The position numbers and the translations under genes were made by a program. From the IMG/VR virus record IMGVR_UViG_2645728091_000014, positions 1 to 11,289 of that record: a stretch of 11,289 nt of DNA. One strand, written 5' to 3'. Source of the DNA: a virus. Taxonomy: Duplodnaviria; Heunggongvirae; Uroviricota; Caudoviricetes. Each line of letters begins with the position of its first letter. The first letter of the stretch is position 1. Positions 1-11,289 of this stretch are shown in pieces. A model generated the notes under the pieces. It saw only the letters and a program-made list of their open reading frames with translations. It made no database searches and was not told the DNA's origin.

Positions 1-249
1 ATGCGCACACAGGTTGTATTGCAAAAATGGGGTAATAGCATTGCCCTTCGACTAACGGGAAACCTTAAAACCGTTCCGGGTTTTTCAGTGGGTGATATCG
101 TCAACGTTGAAATTAGTGAAAAGGGGCTTTTTGTAGAAAAGCCTGCACGCCGTCGCCTGAGTGAAGCCGAATTACTCGCCGGGATAACGCCAGTTACAGC
201 GCACGCGGACGAAATTGCCCCCCCATTCAATGAGGAGGTTGATTACTGA
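1..249 (+). CDS. MazE/PemI-family antitoxin (SpoVT/AbrB-type)
   Basis: 82-aa ORF starting with ATG at base 1. N-terminal K-W-G-N-S-x-A-x-R motif is typical of MazE/PemI/ChpS antitoxins. Stop TGA (247-249) overlaps the ATG of the downstream toxin gene (TGATG). Confidence 0.8.
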   Translation: MRTQVVLQKWGNSIALRLTGNLKTVPGFSVGDIVNVEISEKGLFVEKPARRRLSEAELLAGITPVTAHADEIAPPFNEEVDY

Positions 250-593
250 TGTTTGTACCTAAGCGTGGTGATATTTGCTGGCTGGATTTTGAGCCGCAGA
301 AAGGAAAAGAGATCGGAAAGTATCGCCCGGCACTCATACTGTCCCATGAGCAATATAACCGACTCACCGGGCTTGTCATATGCTGCCCCATAAGTACGAG
401 CATACGAAATGCTCCCACAGAAGTTCCGGTAACAAATCTGGACGCCCCCAACGTTGTAGCAACCACACTCATTCAAACCCTTGACTGGCGTCAGCGGAAA
501 GCGCGCTTAATCACAGAGGCAGAAGATGGGGTATTTAATGATGTGCTTGAAAGAGTCATTACCCTGATTGGCGGAGAGCATCTGCTTAAGTAA
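249..593 (+). CDS. MazF/PemK-family mRNA interferase toxin
   Basis: 114-aa ORF with the family-typical N-terminus (P-x-R-G-D-I-x-W-L-D-F-E-P-x-x-G-x-E-x-G-x-x-R-P-A-L-I-L-S), comparable to MazF/ChpBK/PemK. Start overlaps the antitoxin stop. Confidence 0.85.
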   Translation: MFVPKRGDICWLDFEPQKGKEIGKYRPALILSHEQYNRLTGLVICCPISTSIRNAPTEVPVTNLDAPNVVATTLIQTLDWRQRKARLITEAEDGVFNDVLERVITLIGGEHLLK

Positions 594-597
594 AAGG

Positions 598-615
598 AGG
601 GCTGAGAAGCCCTCA
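598..615. terminator. GC hairpin between convergent genes (possible bidirectional terminator)
   Basis: GAGGGCT (598-604), loop GAGA, AGCCCTC (609-615), lying between the toxin stop and the stop of the minus-strand 423-aa ORF. The T-tract is weak on both strands. Confidence 0.35.
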
Positions 616-636
616 ACGTTACCGGAAATTTCCTTG

Positions 637-1908
637 CTATTCTTTCCAGTCAATCCCATCCAGTAAGCACCCTGCTTCATATTGCCCCACCACCCAGTCA
701 AGGTTACAGGACTCATAGAACGCGAGGCGATTATACTGAGGCTCGTTTTTTACCAGGCCACGAACGGAACCACGCTGCCAGTACAGACACAGATTGGCAA
801 GAGGTGTGATCAATACAGCATTGTCCGGGAAAAATGGAACGGTCACAGCCGGGAGATTCCCCAGAACAGGATTTTTAATGATTTCCTCGTTAAGCAAAAT
901 TTCCTGATTCATCTGCGATGGATCAAGACGGTTTATCAAAGGCCATTGCTTACGGACCAGCGTATTGTGACTGCATACGGCCACAATGCCTTCCTGCCAC
1001 TGTTCATCAATCATGGATTGCCAGGCATCCAGAACGAGCGCATCTATCGTATGGTGTGTACCGCGTGTATTACTTTTCGGTGATGAAACAGAAAGGCCGC
1101 TGATAACCCTTCCCGCCGCTTCATTTCGAAACTTCTGCAACCAGCCCACGCCGCAATCATCACGCCCCGGATATGTTCCGGGATCTGATGTATCGGCATA
1201 GTGCGTACCGTTAAAACCAATCTGAATCAAATCCAGCCATTTCCGGCGTTCAAAAGCAGCCCGTGCGCTTCCTTCAAGACCGTTTGCGGATGCGTGAGCA
1301 TCAACATTGTCGTAGTTCAGCGCAAAATCAAAATTAACCTGCTCGCAGCGGTAGCCCCTTGAAACCAGTGAATGCGCCTGTAGTGGCGAACGGCGCGCGT
1401 GAGACGGTGATGTGCGTGCCAGCGGCCCCGAAGCGTCTACCAGCACAACCCGACCTGATATATCCGTAACAGGCACGGGAGTTATTTCAGCAAGGAAATT
1501 TGCCTGCCATCCACTGGCAAGCGTTGCACTCTGGCGGGGAACAGGCTCAACTTCTGATGAATAGCGCGCAGTGTCATCGGAAAAGTGCAAGTCCTTCGGA
1601 TGCTTTCCGGTTATCGACTCGATAGCGAGATTGAAAGCTATCTGAGACTGTTGATTTCGTTGTGACACAACAGAACCAGCAGTGCGATTATAACGCTCAA
1701 TGCCGTTGTTATTGCCCTCACCGTTTGCAGAATGCAGGGTGTGAAGCTCGAGTTCGCGCTCCAGTTTTTGATATTCATTGTCCAGGGCGCGACGGGTTTC
1801 ATCGCTTATGCCTGCTGTATTTGCTTTCAGGCGATTCCGGGACATTGATCCCCTGAGTCGGCTCACTATATCAGCGACGTGCAAATGTGGAATGTTCAGA
1901 CCGCCCAT
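637..1908 (-). CDS. hypothetical protein ORF2 (423 aa), function unknown
   Basis: Long minus-strand ORF. Preferred start is the ATG at 1908-1906, which overlaps the TAA stop of ORF1 (minus-strand TAATG) and is preceded by GGGGGTGG. The track's 470-aa version starts at 2049 and would overlap ORF1 by 141 nt. No Walker A, CxxC or other motif recognised by eye. Confidence 0.7.
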   Translation of the reverse strand: MGGLNIPHLHVADIVSRLRGSMSRNRLKANTAGISDETRRALDNEYQKLERELELHTLHSANGEGNNNGIERYNRTAGSVVSQRNQQSQIAFNLAIESITGKHPKDLHFSDDTARYSSEVEPVPRQSATLASGWQANFLAEITPVPVTDISGRVVLVDASGPLARTSPSHARRSPLQAHSLVSRGYRCEQVNFDFALNYDNVDAHASANGLEGSARAAFERRKWLDLIQIGFNGTHYADTSDPGTYPGRDDCGVGWLQKFRNEAAGRVISGLSVSSPKSNTRGTHHTIDALVLDAWQSMIDEQWQEGIVAVCSHNTLVRKQWPLINRLDPSQMNQEILLNEEIIKNPVLGNLPAVTVPFFPDNAVLITPLANLCLYWQRGSVRGLVKNEPQYNRLAFYESCNLDWVVGQYEAGCLLDGIDWKE

Positions 1909-2618
1909 TACTGCCACCCCCGGCAGAGTTCTCTGCCCTCCGCAAGGTCGCGCATTTTTTCTGAATTCTGTCGCGCTGCGCTCCATTGTACAGGTGAAGG
2001 GGCGCTCCTGATTGCGCAGCTTACTGAATCCGGGAGTTTCTCCGGGCAATAACGCAGCGGGCTGGAGGTGTCGCTTTCGGTATCGTTAATCCGGCCGCGA
2101 ATCATCCCGACACTTTCAGCAGTATCTGCCGCTTTCAGTGTTTCGCATATTTTCTTTTCTGCGTTATACAGCGGCTGGCCAAGCAGCTCACATAAACCAC
2201 GAATCAATAACAGAACAGGGGTCAGCTCGTTAATCAGTTCGGGAAGTGCTTTTGCAAATATCTCTGCCCGCAACTTATTATCAATACTTTCGTAAGCACA
2301 ACCAGCCTCTGCCGCGTTATAACGACACTCCAGTAGCCTGATGCGCGCCTCATCATGCAGCACCCGCAGACGCTCAAGATTTTCTCGCGCCACACCCGCC
2401 TGAATGGATAATTTCGCGGAGGCTTCCGTTTTTACTCCCAGCGCAGACAGGATTGAGTTCTGCCAGTCACGATCGAGAGACTCCAGTTCCCCTTTCGTCT
2501 GTTCGATAGTCGCTTCCAGATTGGTGACTAATGATTCCTGTTCACTGAGTTTTGCCCTGGCAGTATCAAACCGTGCTTTACATACCTGATGTTCGGCGCT
2601 TGCCTGAGTTATATCCAT
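1908..2618 (-). CDS. hypothetical protein ORF1 (236 aa), predicted helical; possibly Psu-like
   Basis: ATG at 2618-2616 preceded by AGGAG with a 6-nt spacer. N-terminal half is rich in heptad-like charged/Leu segments. Weak resemblance to my recollection of P4 Psu (N-terminal FDT, central A-L-x-P-E-L...E-L-T), unverified. Confidence 0.7.
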   Translation of the reverse strand: MDITQASAEHQVCKARFDTARAKLSEQESLVTNLEATIEQTKGELESLDRDWQNSILSALGVKTEASAKLSIQAGVARENLERLRVLHDEARIRLLECRYNAAEAGCAYESIDNKLRAEIFAKALPELINELTPVLLLIRGLCELLGQPLYNAEKKICETLKAADTAESVGMIRGRINDTESDTSSPLRYCPEKLPDSVSCAIRSAPSPVQWSAARQNSEKMRDLAEGRELCRGWQ

Positions 2619-2627
2619 TATTTGCTC

Positions 2628-2728
2628 CTGTAATACATTTTTTACTTACGCCGATTTTTTCCATATTGCGTAATACATTCCAGCCGATTTTGTTCTCGTA
2701 ATACGCTCACAATACTGTTGTATTACGC
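2628..2728. promoter_or_regulatory. divergent control region with four GTAWTAC heptamers
   Basis: GTAATAC at 2630-2636, 2670-2676 and 2698-2704; inverted GTATTAC at 2720-2726. Lies between the starts of ORF1 (minus) and the RHH gene (plus). The ORF1 ribosome-binding site abuts the first copy. Confidence 0.45.
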
Positions 2729-2782
2729 TTTCTTATATCGCGGGTGTTAAATCCCGGCATAAACAATCAGGGAGGCAACACG

Positions 2783-3016
2783 ATGAAAAAACAAAAGAAA
2801 ATGCGATGCGTATTACGCTGTATTCGTATCCCGCACGAAATCGACCATAAAATAAATCAGATGTGTGAGGACAGAGAGATGAACTACTCCCAGTGCGTCA
2901 GAATGTTTATCAGTCAGGGAATTAAGGCCGGGGAAACGCAGGAAGAAGACCGTGACGGGCGCAATGTGGCGGGGGATGTGTGGGCCTGGGCAAATGACCA
3001 GAACCACACGACGTAA
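2783..3016 (+). CDS. putative ribbon-helix-helix (Arc/CopG-like) DNA-binding protein
   Basis: 77-aa ORF from ATG 2783 preceded by GGGAGG with a 7-nt spacer (the track's 2744 start is a GTG without an RBS). Residues VLRCIRIP then two helices (EIDHKINQMCEDREM, NYSQCVRMFISQG) fit the beta-strand/helix/helix pattern of Arc/MetJ/CopG repressors. Confidence 0.55.
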   Translation: MKKQKKMRCVLRCIRIPHEIDHKINQMCEDREMNYSQCVRMFISQGIKAGETQEEDRDGRNVAGDVWAWANDQNHTT

Positions 3017-3066
3017 TACAGCAATAACGCAGCCGGTCACACTCGCTGGCTGTGTTATACAAATCA

Positions 3067-3249
3067 CTATGAAGTTTTCGCCTTCCTGCGCTTAGTGATG
3101 CGTACAAACGACTCAAGCGTACAAAAACAAGCCCCACACTCAATATTATTGCACTGGTAATACGTTCTGTAGATGTTTTGTTCGTGTTCTTCCAACGAAC
3201 GACCACGGGTGCGGGCTGAAGCGCCACAGGCCGGGCAAGGGAAAGACAT
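3067..3249 (-). CDS. ogr: Ogr/Delta-family zinc-finger late-gene transcription activator
   Basis: 60-aa ORF with C-P-x-C...A-R-T-R...Y-x-C-x-N-x-x-C...F-x-T-x-E-S, matching the Cys4 pattern and spacing of P2 Ogr / P4 Delta. AGGAG 6 nt upstream of the ATG. Confidence 0.8.
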   Translation of the reverse strand: MSFPCPACGASARTRGRSLEEHEQNIYRTYYQCNNIECGACFCTLESFVRITKRRKAKTS

Positions 3250-3283
3250 ATCACGCTCCTCTTACTGGTGTGAAATTTAACCT

Positions 3284-3289
3284 ATTATA
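3284..3289 (-). promoter_or_regulatory. candidate -10 hexamer (TATAAT on minus strand) for ogr
   Basis: Perfect TATAAT on the minus strand about 35 nt upstream of the ogr ATG. No convincing -35 at 17 bp, so activator dependence is possible. Confidence 0.3.
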
Positions 3290-3610
3290 TCTTCCGCCGC
3301 CTCCTCTGGCTGTATCAAATAAACCCGCAGCAGTCGCCGCGTATTACGCACGGGCGCACCGTTCTCATGCTCACTCGTCACATTCCCCGTATCAGTTCTC
3401 TCTTGCCGTAAGAACGGCTCTGGCTGGCGATAAAACTAACCCGGTCGGGCATTCCCGCAGCCTTTAGCGAAAATGTCATTTACCCCCTGAAACGCGTGCT
3501 GTTCCCCCGTCACCTGCGCGCGAAAAACTCACCGTTTTTTGTGCACGCACGAAATCGCCCTCCGGGCGCGCCAGTACTGGGCCGGATGGGCAAAAAGTTA
3601 CTCTAAAAAA

Positions 3611-3637
3611 TTGTGCAAATTTGTGCACTTTTGTGCA
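3611..3637. repeat. three direct TTGTGCA repeats at exact 10-bp phasing
   Basis: TTGTGCA at 3611-3617, 3621-3627 and 3631-3637; a fourth copy at 3539-3545. Two copies extend to the palindrome GTGCAC. Confidence 0.6.
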
Positions 3638-3862
3638 GATGAACAATAGCGTCAAAAAGAGTGCTTTTGAGAGATTTTTTATGGCAACTGCGCCGCGTGT
3701 ATTACGTTTTTTACCATCCCCGCCGTGCATGTACATACTTCATTTTCTGCCAAACAACAGGGCAACTCCCCGTGACTGACAGCCCCAAAAAATCAATGAT
3801 TAATGTTGCATTTTTGTTAGAGATTAGACCAGTTGTTTTGGGGCTCTGCCTCATAATCCGGT

Positions 3863-4179
3863 GGGGGGTGCGCAAAGCGGTTACAACGGTTACAACAGTT
3901 AAAAACACAACTTAACAGTATGATTTTAATGGATATTGTTTGTAACCGCTTTGCGGTTACACTGCGGTTACAACGGTTACAGGTTTCAAAAAGCACTTTA
4001 TTATCAATCAATTAAAAACTTAACCTGTAACCGCCTGTAACCTAACAAAACGGTTACATGTAACCGCGTTGTAACCGCTTTTGTAACTCATCCGACCAGT
4101 TATAATATATTGATATATAATACAAAAATAAGTAATTCTAAATTTGTAACCGTTGTAACCGCTTTGCGCATCCCCCCCC
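3863..4179. repeat. iteron array bounded by a perfect 27-bp inverted repeat; putative ori/crr-like or att-arm region
   Basis: 3869-3895 (TGCGCAAAGCGGTTACAACGGTTACAA) is the exact reverse complement of 4144-4170, extended by G6 (3863-3868) / C8 (4172-4179). At least 13 GGTTAC/GTAACC hexamers lie between, as direct repeats (3878-3895, 3953-3981, 4024-4043) and palindromes (3941-3961, 4051-4066). An AT-rich stretch sits at 4100-4143 and an IHF-like WATCAANNNNTTR match at 4002-4014. Confidence 0.6.
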
Positions 4180-4366
4180 AAACTTTAGCGCGACCCTTTA
4201 AAATGTTAATTAAACTCACTTACTCTGTCTCATTCTCATTAACTCTCTGTGATTAAAATGTATCTCGTCATTATTTGACTCTTTCTGATAATCAGGGGGC
4301 AAAAAATTGATGGCGGCACCACTGCAATATGGCCACCATTGCATTGCCGTTACCGTTGGTTCTGGC

Positions 4367-4397
4367 CAACAAAAAAGGTCAGCGGGAAACTGACCTC
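4367..4397 (-). terminator. rho-independent terminator downstream of int
   Basis: Stem GGTCAG (4377-4382) / CTGACC (4390-4395) with 7-nt loop. On the minus strand it is followed by TTTTTGTT, 30-60 nt after the int stop. It is also T-rich on the plus side. Confidence 0.6.
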
Positions 4398-4425
4398 TTT
4401 TGCTGTGAATGTAGCGTTCTGCGGG

Positions 4426-5430
4426 TTACTCTGCTGGCTCTTTTTCTTCGATGATCACTATGTTGGCTACCGGGTTAAATCTCATGGCATCTGCCAGATA
4501 ATCCGGTGCAAAATGTGCGTATGCCATAGTCTGCTGAATTGTCGCATGCCCAAGGATTTTTTGTAGCGCAAGAATGTTGCCACCGTTCATCACAAAGTGA
4601 CTGGCGAATGTATGCCGCAATACATGCGCAGCCTGCCCCCTCGGTAAATCGGGTTTTATTTTTTTTAATGCCCGGCAAAACTCTCTATACTTCACATCAA
4701 ACAGTCGCCCGGTTTCTTTTGTTTTTACGGCATCGCATATTTCCTGCGACACAGGCACCGTTCTTTTTCTACCGTTTTTGGTTTCCAGAAACGTTATTCT
4801 ATTATGAACTATTTGCTCTCCATGCAATCTGCTGGCCTCACTCCAGCGGGCTCCGGTACATAGACACAAGAGCGCAACCCTTCGTTGATCTCCATTCAGC
4901 CCGTCAAGCAACAATGTGACCTCGTTTTTTGATAAAAAGGCCATTTCCCGCTGCTTTACATAAAGAACAGGAATACCACGAACCGGATGCTCTGCATCCC
5001 ACAAACCGATCTTTTTCAGGGCTGTAAACATCCCCGATAATCTGTTCATGTATCTGTTTGCTGAGGACGGCTTTAATCCTTCCGCAATTTTCTGCGATCG
5101 CCATGCAATGATTTTTAATTTGTCGAGTTCTACCGCAAACATGTCAGCTCCAAGCTCATTAATAATTTTGCCAAGCTGCTGTTTATCCGTGTTTGCCTTT
5201 CGCCTGTGCTGACCGTGATAAACCCACCACAATTCCAGTAAATCGCTAAGCGTTCTCCGGTCGCGATAGCCCTGTATAAACTCGCGCTTTTCGGCGTTCG
5301 CTATGATGTACCGTTCAGTTGCTGTAGCTATCGATTTTTTGTCAAATATTCTTCTGATGCGCTTCCCTTTACGTCCGCATGGCCTGATATCGAGCAGCCA
5401 CCGCCCATCATGCATCTTTCTGATCGGCAT
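4426..5430 (-). CDS. int: tyrosine recombinase / phage integrase (P2-type)
   Basis: C-terminal H-x-L-R-H-T...L-G-H...Y catalytic motifs. N-terminus (DGRWLLDIRPCGRKGKRIRRIFDKKS) resembles P2/186-type integrases. Preferred ATG at 5430 lies 2 nt after the primase stop with AAGGAGG upstream; the alternative ATG at 5466 adds 12 aa. Confidence 0.9.
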   Translation of the reverse strand: MPIRKMHDGRWLLDIRPCGRKGKRIRRIFDKKSIATATERYIIANAEKREFIQGYRDRRTLSDLLELWWVYHGQHRRKANTDKQQLGKIINELGADMFAVELDKLKIIAWRSQKIAEGLKPSSANRYMNRLSGMFTALKKIGLWDAEHPVRGIPVLYVKQREMAFLSKNEVTLLLDGLNGDQRRVALLCLCTGARWSEASRLHGEQIVHNRITFLETKNGRKRTVPVSQEICDAVKTKETGRLFDVKYREFCRALKKIKPDLPRGQAAHVLRHTFASHFVMNGGNILALQKILGHATIQQTMAYAHFAPDYLADAMRFNPVANIVIIEEKEPAE

Positions 5431-5432
5431 GT

Positions 5433-8102
5433 TTAACGCCCCTCCTTGTAACTGAATATCCGGCATTTCAGTACTTCCGGCTCTCTGGCCTCGGCGACCC
5501 CTCTTCCGGCGTTTGCCTGTCTGGAGACCTCACTACGAATGGTTTTGCGGCCTGTCAAAGGTCGGGAACGTCCTGCTCCGAGCAACTCAATCATTTCGCG
5601 GTCAGTGCGGATCTCCACGCGGTGAATAGCGGCAGCCTGTGCCAGTTGCGGAATACTGATAGCAATCCCCTCGCGGCATCCCTTGCCGTAGTGGTTTACA
5701 CCGTATTTTGTTATGCCGTCCAGGAAGTCGAACGCCTCCCAGAACTCCATCACTTCCGGTAAATCAGCCGCCGCCGCTTTAACCTGCGCTGTTGCCATTT
5801 GTTCCAGTTCCAGACATGTGGCATCAAGCCATTCATCTGGGATATCAATAACGCATTTCAGCGCCCTGACCAGCGCGATAAGTTGTGCGTGATTTTTGGC
5901 GATGCGGGGATGGCGAATATTTTCGCATCCGCAAAGGCGTTCCGTTTCAACTGGAGATACTTCCAGGAACGTTTGCATAATCGCCCGTTCCTGACTTGCC
6001 GCCCGGTGAATAAACCCAGATACCTTCTCGACGGGGTAAAGTTCCAGCCGTCTCGCCGCCAGGCGGGTATCAGGTGAATGGCGTTTTTTATCGGTGTATA
6101 TGCGTATCAGGCGCTCAATAATTGCCGGAGAGGCGTTTACCCGCGCATTCTGCGCAATCACGATAGCGCCCTTAAAATCCGGATCATAGGTGTTGTTATT
6201 GTTGGCCTTAACACCACGAACGCCGATACCACCGCCGTTATAGAGACTTTTCAGGTTATCGAAGTCAAACGCACCTCTTTTTTGCGCATTGTCTCCCCGG
6301 TCCGCTTCAATCAGAACAACAGGTAATCCGGCGACCTGTCCAAAGGTGCGCTTCCAGCCCGCCTCTGATCCTTTGGTTGGATCAACGCCTTCATAGTTGT
6401 CACGACCGCACAGCCGCCAGCAAAAATCAATCAGTGTTGATTTACCCGTTCCGGGCTCCCCGGTGACTTCAAGGAAGGGGAAGGATTCTTCTTTATCCCG
6501 GATTTGTTCGCTGAACAGGGAGCCCAACCAGAAAGCCAGGGTAATAATTCCCTTTTCACCAAAAGCCAGCCAGAGATCTTCCACCCAGGACGCTGTAAAT
6601 TCATCCGGTTTTTTGTAGTTAATCTGTAATGTGGGTTTTTCGCTTAATGGTTTTGCGTTTATGCCATCAATTTCAAAATAATCCTCATCATTGATTTCAT
6701 AAGTTTTACCCTTATAAACGGCAATATCATTAAACAGCCATGCCCCAATTCCCTTGTTGTATCCGATAAAATCCTGACCAATAACCTCTTTTATTGCGGG
6801 AAGGTCATTTTTTATTAATGCGTCAAGCTGCGTAGTCGTTCCGGTATAAATACCGCCTTTTGCCACGTGCAGCAGGCGTTTTTTAAATTCAGATGAGGAT
6901 GTTAATTGTCCTGATGTAAAGGTGTTTTTCACCGTAGCACCATCCGGGAATGTAACGCGGAAGTAATACCATGCTTCATCCGTGTCATTGTTTCGAATGT
7001 AATAAAGCGGCACTGGGTTACAGTTTGCGATTTCTTTTACAGCACCGGATTCCTTAAGTGCAATTTTGCGCGCTTCGTCTTCGTCAACATTTCGCTCATT
7101 AATGACACGCTCAACAGCCTTCATATGGCGCTCAATGTCCAGCTTGAACCAGAAAACACGGTTATCAAAAGTAAAATGAAATTCCTTCCGCTCACGAAAG
7201 GAAAACATTATTAGTGCCTTATCTCTTGGAGATTTCGCCAGCAATAAATCACCGTAATAACGGTATCTTTTCACATCATGGCCACGCAGCTTTCCGGCGA
7301 TGTGTAAATCATTCCAGTCGCGTTTATTGCTGTTTTTACCCGGTAACGCCGCCGCCGTTCTCCAGCCGTCTTCGGCGCTGCGTTCTGCATGTTTTTTCGC
7401 GTAACGTTCACCCGCACGCCCGTTATCCAGGGCCCACACAATAACCGGACGGGGATTATCTCCGCACAGCTTCGCCAGCTCTTCCAGCGCCTTATCAGGG
7501 TAGTTCACGGCAGACATGACAGAAACGGCCGCAATGCCATTCTGGTTAAGGCTGATGGCATCAAAGATGCCCTCACAAATCCAGATTTCTTTGGCCTTGC
7601 TTAAATCTGCTCCCGGATAAGCCCACCACAACCCCTTGTAGCTGCCGGAAAAATTCGCCTTGCGCGCGAAGCGTCCCGGTCGGTCTATGATGCGCTCCCA
7701 CCACACGCCGTCAGCCAGCGTAAAACGCACAGTAGCGGCCTGTTCGCCGTTTTCCTTGTCCTGGTATCGCTCCTGAGTAAATGCGCCCTTCAGTGGCCCC
7801 ACAGCAATATTGCGCGCTTCCTGAAGATAAGCTGCCGCCGCTGCATATGGCTCATCTTTCGTGCTGATATAACGATCTGACCATGATGAAAACACATCCG
7901 GGTAAAGTTCTTTGGTCAGCAGGTCTATACCGCATTTATTTTCGCGCCCACAGTGTACGATGTACGGCCTTTCAAGGCTGGTAAACAACTCTTTCTTTCC
8001 ACATTGCGGACAAACACCATACCGGAGGTAGTTATTTTCTTCTTTGAAGTTGTAATCACGGATAAGACGGTTAATAATCTCTTTTCTGATGTCAGATTTC
8101 AT
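5433..8102 (-). CDS. alpha-like DNA primase-helicase (zinc-binding N-terminus, TOPRIM primase, SF3/D5-type helicase)
   Basis: N-terminal C-P-x-C...H-C...C zinc motif, TOPRIM-like E-G-I-F-D-A and L-D-N-G-R-A-G, and Walker A G-E-P-G-T-G-K-S-T. Preferred ATG at 8102 with GGAG 8 nt upstream; the track start at 8126 is a GTG inside a hairpin. Confidence 0.9.
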   Translation of the reverse strand: MKSDIRKEIINRLIRDYNFKEENNYLRYGVCPQCGKKELFTSLERPYIVHCGRENKCGIDLLTKELYPDVFSSWSDRYISTKDEPYAAAAAYLQEARNIAVGPLKGAFTQERYQDKENGEQAATVRFTLADGVWWERIIDRPGRFARKANFSGSYKGLWWAYPGADLSKAKEIWICEGIFDAISLNQNGIAAVSVMSAVNYPDKALEELAKLCGDNPRPVIVWALDNGRAGERYAKKHAERSAEDGWRTAAALPGKNSNKRDWNDLHIAGKLRGHDVKRYRYYGDLLLAKSPRDKALIMFSFRERKEFHFTFDNRVFWFKLDIERHMKAVERVINERNVDEDEARKIALKESGAVKEIANCNPVPLYYIRNNDTDEAWYYFRVTFPDGATVKNTFTSGQLTSSSEFKKRLLHVAKGGIYTGTTTQLDALIKNDLPAIKEVIGQDFIGYNKGIGAWLFNDIAVYKGKTYEINDEDYFEIDGINAKPLSEKPTLQINYKKPDEFTASWVEDLWLAFGEKGIITLAFWLGSLFSEQIRDKEESFPFLEVTGEPGTGKSTLIDFCWRLCGRDNYEGVDPTKGSEAGWKRTFGQVAGLPVVLIEADRGDNAQKRGAFDFDNLKSLYNGGGIGVRGVKANNNNTYDPDFKGAIVIAQNARVNASPAIIERLIRIYTDKKRHSPDTRLAARRLELYPVEKVSGFIHRAASQERAIMQTFLEVSPVETERLCGCENIRHPRIAKNHAQLIALVRALKCVIDIPDEWLDATCLELEQMATAQVKAAAADLPEVMEFWEAFDFLDGITKYGVNHYGKGCREGIAISIPQLAQAAAIHRVEIRTDREMIELLGAGRSRPLTGRKTIRSEVSRQANAGRGVAEAREPEVLKCRIFSYKEGR

Positions 8103-8115
8103 ATATAAAACTCCA

Positions 8116-8145
8116 CCCCACTGCACCTTTTGCAGTGGGGTTTTT
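8116..8145 (+). terminator. perfect 10-bp GC hairpin plus T-run in the primase 5' leader
   Basis: CCCCACTGCA (8116-8125), loop CCTTT, TGCAGTGGGG (8131-8140), then TTTTT (8141-8145) on the plus strand. On the minus strand the stem is followed by UGGAGUUUUAUAUAUG, which contains the primase RBS and start. Confidence 0.45.
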
Positions 8146-8150
8146 ATTAA

Positions 8151-8450
8151 TTACTCGTTACTTATTGCTTTGGCAATCCCGGCGGTTTCGGCACTATGCC
8201 ATGAAAAAATTCCGCCAGAAGTATGCATTCCTGACTTAATCGCTCGTAATTCCCGATAAAGAATGTTAGTTAATGATTCCATTTCATTAATTTGCACTGG
8301 CATTCTCTCACTGGTATTAATTTCACCTGTCAATGCTGAAAGGAGCGCAATAACATTTATTACATCTTCAAGATTCTCAATGGAATCTTCCGTGAAAAAA
8401 CCAGCGTATTCTTTTTTGTATATATTGCGGATATTCTGATTTTCAGACAT
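8151..8450 (-). CDS. hypothetical protein (99 aa), AT-rich
   Basis: ATG at 8450 preceded by GGGGAG with a 5-nt spacer. Visibly more AT-rich than the flanking primase and small-ORF block. Confidence 0.5.
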   Translation of the reverse strand: MSENQNIRNIYKKEYAGFFTEDSIENLEDVINVIALLSALTGEINTSERMPVQINEMESLTNILYRELRAIKSGMHTSGGIFSWHSAETAGIAKAISNE

Positions 8451-8517
8451 AAAAACTCCCCGACCCGTTAAGATCGAAATATAAATTTAATTCAGTTATC
8501 AGTTGGTAATTCGGGAA

Positions 8518-8736
8518 TCAGGCGGAAAGCTGCGTCACCTTCAACGCTTTGAAATGTGTCATTCCCAGCTCTTCCAGCCCTTCGGCTGCGCGGCGTATGG
8601 CTTCGCCCGGTCCCGTTCCGTATACCGTTGCATGTGCATGTTTGGTTAACCCACGTTTATTAACGGCATAACCCAACACAAAGAAACGTTTTTCACCACT
8701 GCCATTATTTTTACGGGATATTGAACGGCTTTTCAT
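8518..8736 (-). CDS. hypothetical small protein (72 aa)
   Basis: ATG 8736-8734 overlaps the TGA stop of the upstream ORF (ATGA), indicating translational coupling. Confidence 0.5.
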   Translation of the reverse strand: MKSRSISRKNNGSGEKRFFVLGYAVNKRGLTKHAHATVYGTGPGEAIRRAAEGLEELGMTHFKALKVTQLSA

Positions 8737-8921
8737 TTCTTCACCTTTAGCACTGATGCTGTGAGTTCTTCTTCTGGCAATTGATATTTCGGCGCAATTT
8801 CTTCCGTATACCTGATAGCATCCCTTGCCGCTTTTCCTTTTGATTTATATTTACGTATCGTGTAGAAGTTTTCTTCCTCTCCTGTTACCACATTACGCAA
8901 TTTAATATGAATCTCGTACAT
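8733..8921 (-). CDS. hypothetical small protein (62 aa)
   Basis: Preferred ATG at 8921 is preceded by GGAGGGG and sits 2 nt after the TAA stop of the upstream ORF. The track version starts 10 codons earlier at 8951. Confidence 0.5.
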   Translation of the reverse strand: MYEIHIKLRNVVTGEEENFYTIRKYKSKGKAARDAIRYTEEIAPKYQLPEEELTASVLKVKK

Positions 8922-8923
8922 CG

Positions 8924-9106
8924 TTACCCCTCCATGATTTTTACTGCGCATTTGTGGGTTAATCGCCCCTGTTTGTCATTGCGGGAATATGCCATACGAC
9001 AGGCATCACGCCATGCATCGTCATAAGTCGGATATTCCCAGGAATGAATCATCTGGCGAACGTCGCCGTTCTGGTAGTTAATCAGGGTGATAAGGAGCTT
9101 AAACAT
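8924..9106 (-). CDS. hypothetical small protein (60 aa)
   Basis: Preferred ATG at 9106 is preceded by GGGAGG about 7 nt upstream. The track's 86-aa version (start 9184) has no RBS. Confidence 0.5.
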   Translation of the reverse strand: MFKLLITLINYQNGDVRQMIHSWEYPTYDDAWRDACRMAYSRNDKQGRLTHKCAVKIMEG

Positions 9107-9272
9107 GGCACGCCTCCCGGACACGGATACGGGCAACAAAGACCAGACGGGATGCCGGAAGCATGGCGCGCGCTTCGCGCTCACTGGCAGCGGTAACGGT
9201 ATGAAGGCGAATATTTTTACCGTGGCACTGCATAAAGCGCCAGATAAAATCAGGGCGTGTTGATATAGCCAT
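9099..9272 (-). CDS. hypothetical small protein (57 aa), possibly Icd-like
   Basis: ATG at 9272 preceded by AAGGAG. The track's 175-aa extension to 9626 is low-complexity and lacks an RBS. The E-R-E-A-R ... L-V-F-V-A-R-I motif pattern resembles my recollection of Icd-like proteins in P4-like prophages, unverified. Confidence 0.4.
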   Translation of the reverse strand: MAISTRPDFIWRFMQCHGKNIRLHTVTAASEREARAMLPASRLVFVARIRVREACHV

Positions 9273-9629
9273 TTTGGCGGCTCCTTGATTAAGTTTACGG
9301 AGTCTCGCCAGCACGCTGCTAAACATGGTGGCGGGACGTAACAGGGTTAGCAGACTGGCAATCAAGGAACCAGCGAGCGCAAAGGCTCCCCCATTACGCC
9401 CCGCCATAATACGGGGTAGGGTGGAATTACGGGCACAAAAAAACCGCATTACGGAAATATAGCGGCTACCCGCTTGATTGTTCAGGCTGCTAAACCCGGC
9501 ACCCGCTTTATGAGGTGCGGGCAAACGATACGCCATGACAAAAAAGCGAGTCAAGCAATATTGCAAATTATTTTTGCTCACTTGCGCTGAGTGATTGATT
9601 TTAAAGAGTAAAAAAGCCATAATCATTTC

Positions 9630-9720
9630 TGCCTATTACTTCTTATTGCTGACTTTAGGTGCATTAAATGCACATCCTTGACTGGTTGGCTCGCTAGCTT
9701 CAGCGAGCTTCTTTTTTTTT
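9630..9720 (+). ncRNA. candidate ~90-nt plus-strand small RNA, antisense to the minus-strand operon leader
   Basis: Plus-strand TTGATT (9595-9600), 17-bp spacer, CATAAT (9618-9623), then a GTGCATT/AATGCAC hairpin (9659-9673) and a terminator hairpin with T-run (9689-9720). No plus-strand ORF of note. Confidence 0.25.
9689..9720 (+). terminator. intrinsic terminator oriented on the plus strand
   Basis: GCTCGCT (9689-9695), loop AGCTTC, AGCGAGC (9702-9708), then TTCTTTTTTTTT (9709-9720). On the minus strand the A-run precedes the stem, so it is not a minus-strand terminator. Confidence 0.5.
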
Positions 9721-9820
9721 GCTCTGCTGCCAGTACTTGGCCTCCTTCCCCCACATGTAGCAATACGTTCAGATCAGTAAGTTTTGCCACCCAGTGATGG
9801 ACGCAATAAACCACCAACGC

Positions 9821-10141
9821 TTATTCAACTCTGGCGCTACCGGATTCTCTCTCCCTTTTCTTTTTGGCGTTTTCGTATGGGTTATTCACTTTGGCAATAA
9901 CTGGCGGATTACGTAGCCACCACAAAACATCACTTAACAGCCAGGTACATGAGCAACGCCCCAAAGAGTGACGAGGAGGAAAAGCACCGATCTTCTCCAG
10001 TTCCCAGCGGCGGGAGCGTGAAAGCGTGGTCATTTTTTTACACTTCTCTTCCCTGATGCGTTCTTCGCAGTCAAAGCCATACTCGGCGAGTATGGTGCGG
10101 CGCTGTTCTGGAGTTGGTGGAATGAATGCGGATTGAGTCAT
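9821..10141 (-). CDS. alpA: AlpA/Vis-family phage transcriptional regulator (excisionase-like HTH)
   Basis: 106-aa ORF. The segment L-S-R-S-R-R-W-E-L-E-K-I-G-A-F-P-P-R ... W-L-L-S-D-V-L-W-W-L matches the AlpA HTH pattern. Confidence 0.8.
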   Translation of the reverse strand: MTQSAFIPPTPEQRRTILAEYGFDCEERIREEKCKKMTTLSRSRRWELEKIGAFPPRHSLGRCSCTWLLSDVLWWLRNPPVIAKVNNPYENAKKKRERESGSARVE

Positions 10142-10202
10142 ATTTCCCCCTATGTTTCTGAACTTTCGGGGGAGATTTTTGTTTTACGGAGTTTTGAAAG
10201 CA

Positions 10203-10239
10203 AGTATTAAAGGTCTTATTAAGATGCTTGCTGGTCTTA
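10203..10239. repeat. two 15-bp direct repeats 21 bp apart in the alpA upstream region
   Basis: GGTCTTATTAAGATG (10203-10217) and GGTCTTACTGAGATG (10224-10238), 13/15 identical, overlapping the 3' end of the 350-aa ORF. Confidence 0.35.
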
Positions 10240-11289
10240 CTGAGATGATGCTTTAATCCATCTTGATATAGTACTTTTATCAAAGCGCATATTGAGTCCT
10301 GCCTCTCTTGCTTCCGCGGTCAATATATCAGCAAGTTTTACCGGATTGTTTTCGAGTTCTTTATAATGAATAACAAGCATCGCACGAAAAAAATCCTTCA
10401 TTGTTTTAGATAATCGTTCTATATTGTTTTTATTGGTGCATATGTCTTTCTCTCCATCCTCAGAACTTAATATATTGTTACCCGCACACAAATATAAAGT
10501 ATCTGCCAATGGATTAACATAATCTTTTCTTAACTCGCTATTGGAGTTTGTAGCATTTTGTATTTTTAAAAAATCATTCTTTAAGATATATAAATCACCA
10601 ATATCAAAAGAAACATCCTCAGTAACAATTAGTCCTATATGTATATCAACGTCAGAAGCAATTATAATATTGCTATTAATTATTCGGTTGGCTTTAAACT
10701 TCTTATTAAAATCATAGTTGGCAAAAAAACTTCCCCCCAAAGCGAAAATGCCGCCTATTTCAACAAAATACTTATGGTATTTTTCTTGAATACCTTTAAA
10801 TACTGGTGGCACAACTGCCACAGCTCTTTCATCCGTTGCTATTCGATATACACTATATATGTGATAATTTTCCCCATAATATACCCCCCTGTTATAATAA
10901 TTTAACAAAGCAAATGCAGTATCAATTGCTATGTCACCAAATTTGGGCGTTACATATGAATGACTTAGAGATTCGCACATTGAATCAAATATAATTCTCG
11001 ACTTGGTTTTTATATAATTAAAACCATGGTGTTCTGCCGCCCTTTCTGAAATGGCATCAAGATCAGATAACCGTGATTTACACGGTTCTGAATCCATAAA
11101 CTTACGCAGACAATCGAAATTAACCACATCTTTTTCATCTGGGATATTTAATACTCCATATGCAGATTCAATTTTTATACAAATACGAATGCAGCCTGTC
11201 ACAGCCCAATGAATAAGATCGTCAATATCGCAGTCTAATAACTTTGCCGCGCGCTCAATAGGATAGTAATCTCTTAGTGGTAACGTCAT
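10237..11289 (-). CDS. hypothetical protein (350 aa), AT-rich, HTH-like segments at both termini
   Basis: ATG is the last three bases of the window, so the true start may lie upstream. N-terminal Y-P-I-E-R-A-A-K-L-L-D-C-D-I-D-D-L-I-H-W and C-terminal A-D-I-L-T-A-E-A-R-E-A-G-L-N-M-R-F-D-K-S-T-I-S-R-W-I-K look like helix-turn-helix elements. A weak G-G-S ... S-D-V-D-I stretch was noted. Confidence 0.65.
   Translation of the reverse strand: MTLPLRDYYPIERAAKLLDCDIDDLIHWAVTGCIRICIKIESAYGVLNIPDEKDVVNFDCLRKFMDSEPCKSRLSDLDAISERAAEHHGFNYIKTKSRIIFDSMCESLSHSYVTPKFGDIAIDTAFALLNYYNRGVYYGENYHIYSVYRIATDERAVAVVPPVFKGIQEKYHKYFVEIGGIFALGGSFFANYDFNKKFKANRIINSNIIIASDVDIHIGLIVTEDVSFDIGDLYILKNDFLKIQNATNSNSELRKDYVNPLADTLYLCAGNNILSSEDGEKDICTNKNNIERLSKTMKDFFRAMLVIHYKELENNPVKLADILTAEAREAGLNMRFDKSTISRWIKASSQ

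Follow-up and report, generated by a model that had tools for sequence, protein, structure and literature searches.

In the satellite P4, the primase gene alpha and the integrase gene int are same-strand neighbors 710 bp apart, with the terminator t-alpha, crr and the attachment site attP located between them; in the circular map of P4, only the att site parts int and alpha (PMC8628076). An integrase gene adjoining alpha has been reported for less than 1% of the integrated P4-like elements and attributed to neighboring elements (PMC8628076), and a minor cargo hotspot has been described between the primase gene and att in such elements (PMC13586616). The stretch of DNA analyzed here (positions 1 to 11,289 of the IMG/VR virus record IMGVR_UViG_2645728091_000014, Caudoviricetes; hereafter the window) belongs to a P4-like satellite in which an integrase gene starts 2 nucleotides (nt) after the stop codon of the primase gene. 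An earlier reading of the window, made from the sequence alone (the original prediction), took this integrase to be the element's own and stated that int and alpha are not adjacent in P4. The statement is imprecise, given that the two genes are neighbors, albeit with the intervening elements listed above; the conclusion drawn from it, that the layout is distinct from that of P4, is borne out by a synteny comparison, which places an internal P2-type integrase (Int) without an attP next to the primase. What follows the primase gene is an additional, accessory integrase, distinct from the satellite's own. With a probability of about 0.4, it is an Int derived from a helper phage and coupled to the primase that would act in trans on the att sites of the helper, with excision as the preferred direction.

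The open reading frames (ORFs) of primase and int lie on the minus strand (Table 1), with only nt 5432-5431 (AC) between the TAA of the former and the ATG of the latter; the minus-strand sequence across the junction is ACAAGGAGGGGCGTTAAACATG. A seven-base Shine-Dalgarno (SD) match, AAGGAGG (5447-5441), is located within the final primase codons (K-E-G-R-stop), 10 nt 5' of the int ATG. The RefSeq gene calls in an identical chromosome give identical coordinates for both genes, and an alternative in-frame int ATG at 5466 lacks an SD, with the N-termini of phage Ints aligning to the 5430 start. On the 3' side of int, a hairpin (4396-4376) begins 29 nt past the stop codon and is followed by TTTTTT on the minus strand; this terminator is kept in all E. 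coli loci, and the Yersinia locus L025 has another hairpin with T6 in the same position. Just past the terminator there is a tandem repeat, GCAATGGTGGCC / GCAGTGGTGCC, that is kept whatever the int allele. A consensus scan detected no terminator-like site between primase and int and, as weak evidence, no minus-strand promoter-like site between 4209 and 9484, an interval that includes the whole primase gene. The arrangement of TAA, 2 nt and ATG with the same SD is present in 13 other loci that comprise five int types and two genera (e.g., the Yersinia element, 10673/10676, with a primase that is 78% identical), and a fourteenth locus, C25, has an ATGA overlap in place of the gap. The 2-nt gap, the ribosome-binding site inside the 3' end of the primase gene and the terminator after int had all been described in the original prediction, and all three are confirmed. 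The combination of a shared strand, a short gap or overlap, an SD within the upstream gene and no intervening terminator, which recurs in 14 further loci, supports the view that int is placed where it could be co-transcribed with, and translationally coupled to, primase, in a unit that the terminator would close.

The 5' end of the proposed 'replication operon' is uncertain, given a strong, position-conserved hairpin directly before the primase SD. Hairpins of different sequence occupy the same position in loci L012/L022, in L025 and in the Salmonella loci L027 and L029, which lack the internal int. The hairpin is located 12 nt from the primase ATG at 8102, which leaves hardly any room for a promoter, so that transcription of primase and int must pass through it. 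A second terminator-like hairpin precedes the 99-amino acid (aa) ORF found just upstream of primase, and the two together suggest regulated readthrough into primase and int. The earlier claim that int is expressed with the replication module thus stands with respect to the position of the gene, which is that expected for co-transcription and coupling, but is open to doubt with respect to the 5' end of the operon because of the first hairpin; co-transcription of primase and int is predicted from the gene arrangement.

E. coli chromosomes contain the window with 100% identity; together with its flanks (locus L001), it is recognizable as the inner part of an island located between hpt and gcd. 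The island is bounded by a 24-nt direct repeat (CATTACTTCTACA..ATGTTTCAT, the first hpt codons) that encloses 12,949 bp. The joined outer flanks, that is, the reconstructed empty site, are uninterrupted in 5354 of the 5426 E. coli genomes, which identifies the 24-nt repeats as the att sites. Insertion at the 5' end of hpt parts this gene from its original upstream region. The integrase encoded at the island edge is of the P4 type, although distant from P4 Int (22% identity, E value of 2e-17), and its gene points away from the att core, an orientation shared with P4; together, the edge integrase, the core and the arm repeats make up a full module for integration. It is the type of edge Int, and not the internal allele, with which the insertion site changes (hpt vs tRNA-Arg): the M15-type internal allele is found at both sites, accompanied by an edge Int of 403 aa at hpt and of 420 aa at tRNA-Arg, three other internal alleles are all found at hpt, and each of the seven inspected copies for which the flanking genes were read is located at the site expected from its edge integrase. 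The internal int neither lies at the island boundary beside the att core nor has an insertion site that tracks its type. The assumption that it is the element's own integrase is therefore not upheld, this role being filled by the edge Int with its att core and arm repeats. The comparison with an unoccupied locus that had been proposed for mapping the att site of the internal integrase did yield a single att pair and an empty site, but these belong to the edge Int. A tandem or composite element, with the 334-aa integrase as the edge of a second island, was considered as well and rejected: there is no att in the 2-nt gap, the Salmonella relatives without int have the same gene set, and one att pair with one empty site explains the whole island.

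The internal Int is a member of the P2/P88 family of tyrosine integrases. It matches the P2 integrase structure 5c6k (E value of 5.4e-80, residues 49-322), is 81% identical in aa sequence to the Ints of phages Chuche, P88_4B11 and PhiR44_2 and 51% identical to P2 Int, and has no significant similarity to P4 Int. The catalytic R, K, HxxR, H and Y (in the motifs GARWS, TKNGK/R, HVLRHTFA, LGH and MxYAHF) are kept in an alignment of five satellite alleles with four phage Ints. The ratio of nonsynonymous to synonymous divergence (dN/dS) between satellite copies is 0.08 (dS 0.34) in one comparison and 0.056 in another, a constraint at least equal to that of the primase, and 15 of the 15 loci with complete sequence carry an intact int ORF. 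Judged by these values, int is an intact gene under purifying selection. Apart from Toprim-level matches of the primase, PADLOC finds no match for Int and its neighbors, so that a known defense system is not supported.

The C-int lysogeny operon of P88-like phages lies opposite cox and ends with int, the 3' end of which leads into attP arm repeats: the last int codons enter tandem TGTCCACGCA / TGTCCAT repeats that recur about 270 bp further on, the pattern that would be expected of attP arm sites. The DNA similarity of the satellite gene to P88-like phage int (74.5%) extends from the ATG to 4487, with none in either flank, and the homology ends about 11 codons short of the TGTCCACGCA repeats. 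All alleles end in a satellite-type tail (ADAMRFNPVAN...); a search with the C-terminal 66 aa for further alleles with this tail returned short fragments only. A motif search finds the phage arm motif in the window at the level of chance, a blastn search with small words detects no match of P88-type attP regions anywhere in the islands beyond the chance level, and the non-coding DNA is wholly conserved between satellites with different int alleles, without any segment that co-varies with the allele. At the level of sequence, these comparisons establish that the island has no cognate attP for the internal Int. This result bears on the possibility that the gene is a second integration module for the satellite itself, acting, e.g., at the attB of the helper. 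The integrase is intact, under selection and complete with its N-terminal arm-binding domain, and dual integrases are noted around P4-like elements in two articles (PMC10085698, PMC8628076), all of which would fit such a module. However, the homology stops before the arm sites, the phage attP is unmatched in the islands, no non-coding segment accompanies the alleles, and 7 of 7 inspected copies are at the edge-Int site, so this explanation appears quite improbable.

The internal integrase is also a part of the element that is exchanged between satellites. Five satellites (those of the window, M15, C25, 2-1 and ETEC4067) are collinear, with 94-96% nucleotide identity; in four of the five, the primases are 97-99% identical and the internal Ints 47-58% identical. 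There are at least four int alleles in E. coli, and the Yersinia allele is a fifth type. The M15/ETEC4067-type allele is closest to the Ints of vB_EcoM-569R5, 705R2 and Entero_P88(23) (89%) and the C25-type allele to that of phage P88 (77%), so that, with the window type, three E. coli alleles are each nearest to a different P88-like phage Int (77-89%). The allele of the Yersinia enterocolitica satellite is closest to the Ints of SEN4, SEN5 and phiT5282H (77%), and the 2-1-type allele has no close phage Int (58%). Among 50,697 records of a phage collection searched for the satellite cos site, four match, and all four carry the closest known Int of some satellite allele. Two satellites with primases that are 91% identical carry copies of the 2-1 allele that are 99% identical, which indicates that int cassettes also move between satellite lineages. 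Two or more int-like places are present in 18 of the 29 genomes with the window allele, compared with 36% of all genomes with any, a crude gauge that is confounded by second satellites and phylogeny and is not used as evidence.

The exchange of alleles has to be considered in relation to two further explanations. Under the first, int is a passenger in an accessory hotspot past the primase, kept and diversified only by gene conversion with co-resident P2-like prophages. A cargo hotspot between primase and att is on record (PMC13586616), some relatives lack the gene, the exchange breakpoints fall in conserved int codons, and one copy, in strain K_EC180, has an int-truncating deletion. Nevertheless, the low dN/dS values and the integrity of int in all complete loci are not those of a passenger, the SD and the 2-nt coupling survive allele replacement and are found in Yersinia too, and repeated replacement via short homology patches is unlikely to be fixed without selection; taken together, these observations make a mere passenger rather implausible. 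Under the second explanation, Int is a replication-associated recombinase that resolves satellite multimers near the origin and thereby gives monomeric circles for packaging, a role with which co-expression with the primase, the adjoining iteron field and the conserved tandem repeat past the terminator are compatible. The alleles, however, are only 35-50% identical in the arm-binding, core-binding and first catalytic segments, with the neighboring DNA being 94-96% conserved, so that one fixed site cannot fit all of them; moreover, P2-type integrases are heterobivalent enzymes and not resolvases, and the relatives without int have the same origin. A resolvase is, accordingly, the least probable of the explanations weighed here, with very low odds.

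The primase matches phrog_1139, 'DNA primase', over its full length (5.8e-297) and is 41-52% identical to the primases of P2-like phages of the phiCTX/RSY1/ESSI2_ev239 type. The similarity to P4 alpha is limited to the level of motifs (Toprim and Walker motifs), and by these comparisons the protein is not an alpha orthologue. The 99-aa ORF upstream is highly variable, its identity ranging from 31 to 98% among satellites whose primases are almost the same. Across 13 loci, the identity of this ORF correlates with that of Int (Mantel rho 0.38, p about 0.02) and less so with that of the primase (rho 0.20, p about 0.15); the correlation with the Int allele is a lead and not a result. In loci L012 and L022, the int allele is 99% and the 99-aa ORF 97% identical, with the flanking primases just 91% identical, which implies either that the genes on both sides of primase travel together or that primase itself was replaced. 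The ORF occupies the slot of the derepression/epsilon gene in the Salmonella relatives, but a profile-profile comparison and Pfam gave no detectable relation to the epsilon/derepression proteins, and this assignment was rejected.

The primase is found in about 71 of the 5426 complete E. coli genomes; among the matches listed, all that cover the junction are annotated with both genes. Nine IMG/VR contigs contain the junction, eight with the TAA-2 nt-ATG arrangement and an intact int and the ninth ending inside int after the same junction. In strain K_EC180 (L008 8351-9050), the origin and cos have been lost through a deletion that extends from about codon 208 of int into ogr, so that this is a decayed, immobile copy. 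The Salmonella relatives (L027 and L029/L030) encode primases that are 56-60% identical and have no int 3' of primase. They keep the edge P4-type Int, an AlpA or CI-like regulator, a derepression/ASH protein and the hairpin before primase; L029/L030 additionally have a P2-family capsid gene and Ogr. A terminator is located about 40 nt past the primase stop in L027, and GGTTACA iterons are found about 200-350 nt past it in both L027 and L029/L030. In the E. coli/Yersinia branch, the int ORF lies between the primase stop and the terminator, and its absence after primase in the Salmonella relatives indicates that the internal int was inserted in a single branch.

The scenario that appears most compatible with these observations begins in the E. 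coli/Yersinia ancestor of this capsid-encoding P4-like family, where an int ORF of Peduoviridae (P2/P88-type) would have been inserted between the primase stop and the terminator, the phage attP being left behind; since then, the int core would have been exchanged repeatedly. On entry into the replication and transfer program, Int would be made together with the primase via readthrough transcription and translational coupling. Given that the satellite has no cognate site, the most likely targets of Int are the att sites of the matching helper, on which it would act in trans. The preferred direction would be excision, with the satellite supplying Int for the excision of the helper prophage together with the helper Cox. 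P2 Cox is both the repressor of Pc, from which C and Int are controlled, and the excision directionality factor (PMC3936717); P88-like phages share the P2 order of cox and C-int-attP. With the C-int operon shut off by Cox, Int would be limiting in a derepressed helper prophage, and the satellite could supply it.

Several points weigh against this proposal. The source genome has one int-like place only and hence no resident P2-like helper. The identity of the satellite Ints to known phage Ints is just 77-89%, so that identical DNA specificity is not guaranteed, and the 2-1-type allele has no close phage counterpart. The related satellites of Salmonella manage without an internal int. P4 can exploit an unexcised helper, which leaves the benefit of helper excision unclear. 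Furthermore, the allele exchange could in part reflect gene conversion with co-resident prophages and not selection, and the hairpin before primase may limit the expression of both primase and int.

The principal rival to excision in trans is interference, whereby a helper-type Int would occupy the helper att sites or co-assemble with the helper Int, thus blocking or misdirecting excision or integration; the helper late genes would then be expressed with the helper genomes left unpackaged, or the helper would be unable to lysogenize. The same matching of alleles and the same missing attP speak for this explanation as for the one above, and satellites commonly lower the helper yield (PMC10085698). 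All satellite alleles have a 12-residue acidic C-terminal extension that is absent from the phage Ints aligned with them. The C-terminus of P2/HP1-type integrases contributes to multimerization. On the other hand, the tail is ordinary for the family up to ..FNPVA, the alignment with P2 Int reaches residue 322, and all catalytic residues are kept under strong purifying selection, which is needless for a pure blocker. Interference is thus considered unlikely, although less so than the passenger, second-module and resolvase explanations.

The remaining genes and sites of the element (Table 1) are those of a satellite. The GGTTAC/GTAACC hexamers are concentrated in the iteron field (13 hexamers, against 2 in the other 10.1 kb), which is probably the origin and is common to the Salmonella relatives. 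In vB_EcoM-569R5, the match to the satellite cos includes long identical blocks and is located in unannotated DNA, at a distance of about 0.9 kb on the downstream side of the portal gene gpQ; the ORF 3476-3736 that RefSeq annotates as 'hypothetical protein' across cos is probably spurious. The element encodes an AlpA/excisionase-type regulator (PF05930, phrog_2790) and an Ogr/Delta zinc finger protein (Ogr_Delta, PF04606), and so has, of the SatelliteFinder core set for P4-like satellites (int, psu, delta, sid, alpA, epsilon/ash and alpha), an integrase, an AlpA-type regulator and a Delta/Ogr homologue. No window ORF has a Pfam or PHROG match to the Psu, Sid or derepression families. Judged from this gene content, the element is a P4-like satellite in lifestyle, without detectable Psu, Sid and epsilon, and with a capsid gene instead. 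The capsid protein shares only about 35% identity with capsids of the 186/P2 type, and its N-terminus extends roughly 70-120 aa past the phage-capsid alignment; a 236-aa ORF without a family match precedes its gene and is a candidate scaffold, and the pair is also present in the Yersinia and Salmonella relatives. No description of this satellite capsid family was found in the literature searched. P4-like satellites keep cargo or defense genes at the att-proximal end of the island. At this end, a MazE/MazF (PemK) toxin-antitoxin pair is encoded, with no PADLOC match. Between the edge integrase and AlpA, there is a 350-aa ORF that is unmatched in Pfam, PHROGs and PADLOC and is absent from the tRNA-Arg version of the island (L007).

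Table 1. Features of the satellite. Positions are those of the window unless locus L001 (the window with its flanks) is given.
Feature	Position	Strand	Remarks
MazE/MazF (PemK) toxin-antitoxin pair	1-593	+	
P2-family major capsid homologue, 423 aa, with the preceding 236-aa ORF	637-2618	-	
cos site, P88-like helper type	3472..3638		82.6-83.1% identical to four Peduoviridae records
Origin-like iteron field	3879..4160		13 GGTTAC/GTAACC hexamers and an AT-rich block
Tandem repeat	4314-4347		just past the int terminator
Intrinsic terminator closing the primase-int unit	4369..4396	-	GGTCAG..CTGACC, then T6
Internal P2/P88-family tyrosine integrase, 334 aa	4426..5430	-	ATG 5430-5428, stop 4428-4426; Pfam Int_N (PF24624) 9.5e-24, Phage_integrase (PF00589) 7.8e-20
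Satellite-type C-terminal tail ADAMRFNPVANIVIIEEKEPAE	4429..4494	-	common to all alleles; present in place of the phage tail, in the coding DNA of which the attP P-arm repeats lie
Swappable int core	4658..5381 (about)	-	up to 8100, sole segment without nucleotide homology among the collinear satellites
Coupling junction	5428..5447	-	SD inside primase, TAA, 2-nt spacer, ATG; read directly; kept across int alleles and genera
Primase-helicase, 889 aa, Zn-ribbon, Toprim and P-loop	5433..8102	-	ATG 8102, TAA 5435-5433; Pfam Toprim_2 7e-13, Toprim_3
GC-rich hairpin, 11 bp stem	8115..8141	-	abuts the primase SD; terminator- or attenuator-like; 5' limit of the primase-int unit
99-aa ORF just upstream of primase	8151-8450	-	no family match
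Second terminator-like hairpin	8458-8479	-	
350-aa ORF	10237-11289	-	
att repeats	L001 11715-11738 and 24664-24687		24-nt repeat, first 24 nt of hpt
Arm-like repeats ATATTGATACACnnATTGATACAC	L001 11800-11823 and 24516-24539		flanking the core when the element is circular
Edge P4-type integrase, 399 aa	L001 23306-24505		17 nt past the right end of the window; Arm-DNA-bind_3, Phage_int_M and Phage_integrase

A coupled, attP-less, helper-matched integrase cassette in a P4-like satellite is a better-supported picture than that of an element carrying its own integrase at this position; the mechanism is what we infer from it. In a more general and doubtful form of the proposal, the exchangeable cassette, i.e., an attP-less helper Int coupled to the primase, drives (or vetoes) the excision or integration of P2/P88-like helpers. 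Such a cassette would get round the Int shortage that results when Cox shuts the C-int operon, and the 99-aa gene upstream of primase may encode a further factor that is specific to the helper and co-varies with Int. Known manipulations of the helper by satellites involve anti-repressors, late-gene activators, capsid-size factors and packaging proteins. If the proposal is correct, control of helper integration and excision would join this list, the internal Int would be the first satellite-encoded recombinase aimed at a helper genome, and there would be a concrete, testable answer to the question of how satellites use poorly inducible P2-like prophages. For annotation, it follows that an integrase adjoining the primase in such islands is unfit for delimiting the element or predicting its att site. 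The pattern of allele swapping is, in addition, a compact natural experiment on integrase specificity.

With regard to known systems, no description of a satellite with an integrase of the same type as that of its helper was found in the literature searched, the coverage of which is incomplete, such that this is absence of evidence only. PLE represents the reverse dependence, with a satellite Int and a helper directionality factor: the PLE integrase uses PexA, which is encoded by ICP1. Satellite functions that act in trans on the helper are exemplified by epsilon and delta of P4, and the Ogr/Delta homologue of the present element is of the same kind as these helper-tuned functions. The P2/P88-like Ints (Peduoviridae; genus Xuanwuvirus and relatives) belong to the same family as the internal Int and have the same length, domains and catalytic residues, with 77-89% identity for three alleles; in the phages, however, int ends the C-int operon beside attP, whereas in the satellite it follows primase, has another tail and lacks an attP. 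The similarity to P4 extends to a leftward operon that ends in a primase with Zn-ribbon, Toprim and P-loop, followed by a terminator and crr-like iterons, to the AlpA/Vis-type and Ogr/Delta-type regulators, to a helper-type cos and to a same-strand integrase downstream of primase, and the order of primase, terminator (in L027) and iterons in the Salmonella relatives is the alpha-t_alpha-crr pattern of P4. The difference is that the integrase downstream of alpha is P4's own, whereas this satellite has its own P4-type integrase and attP at the island edge.

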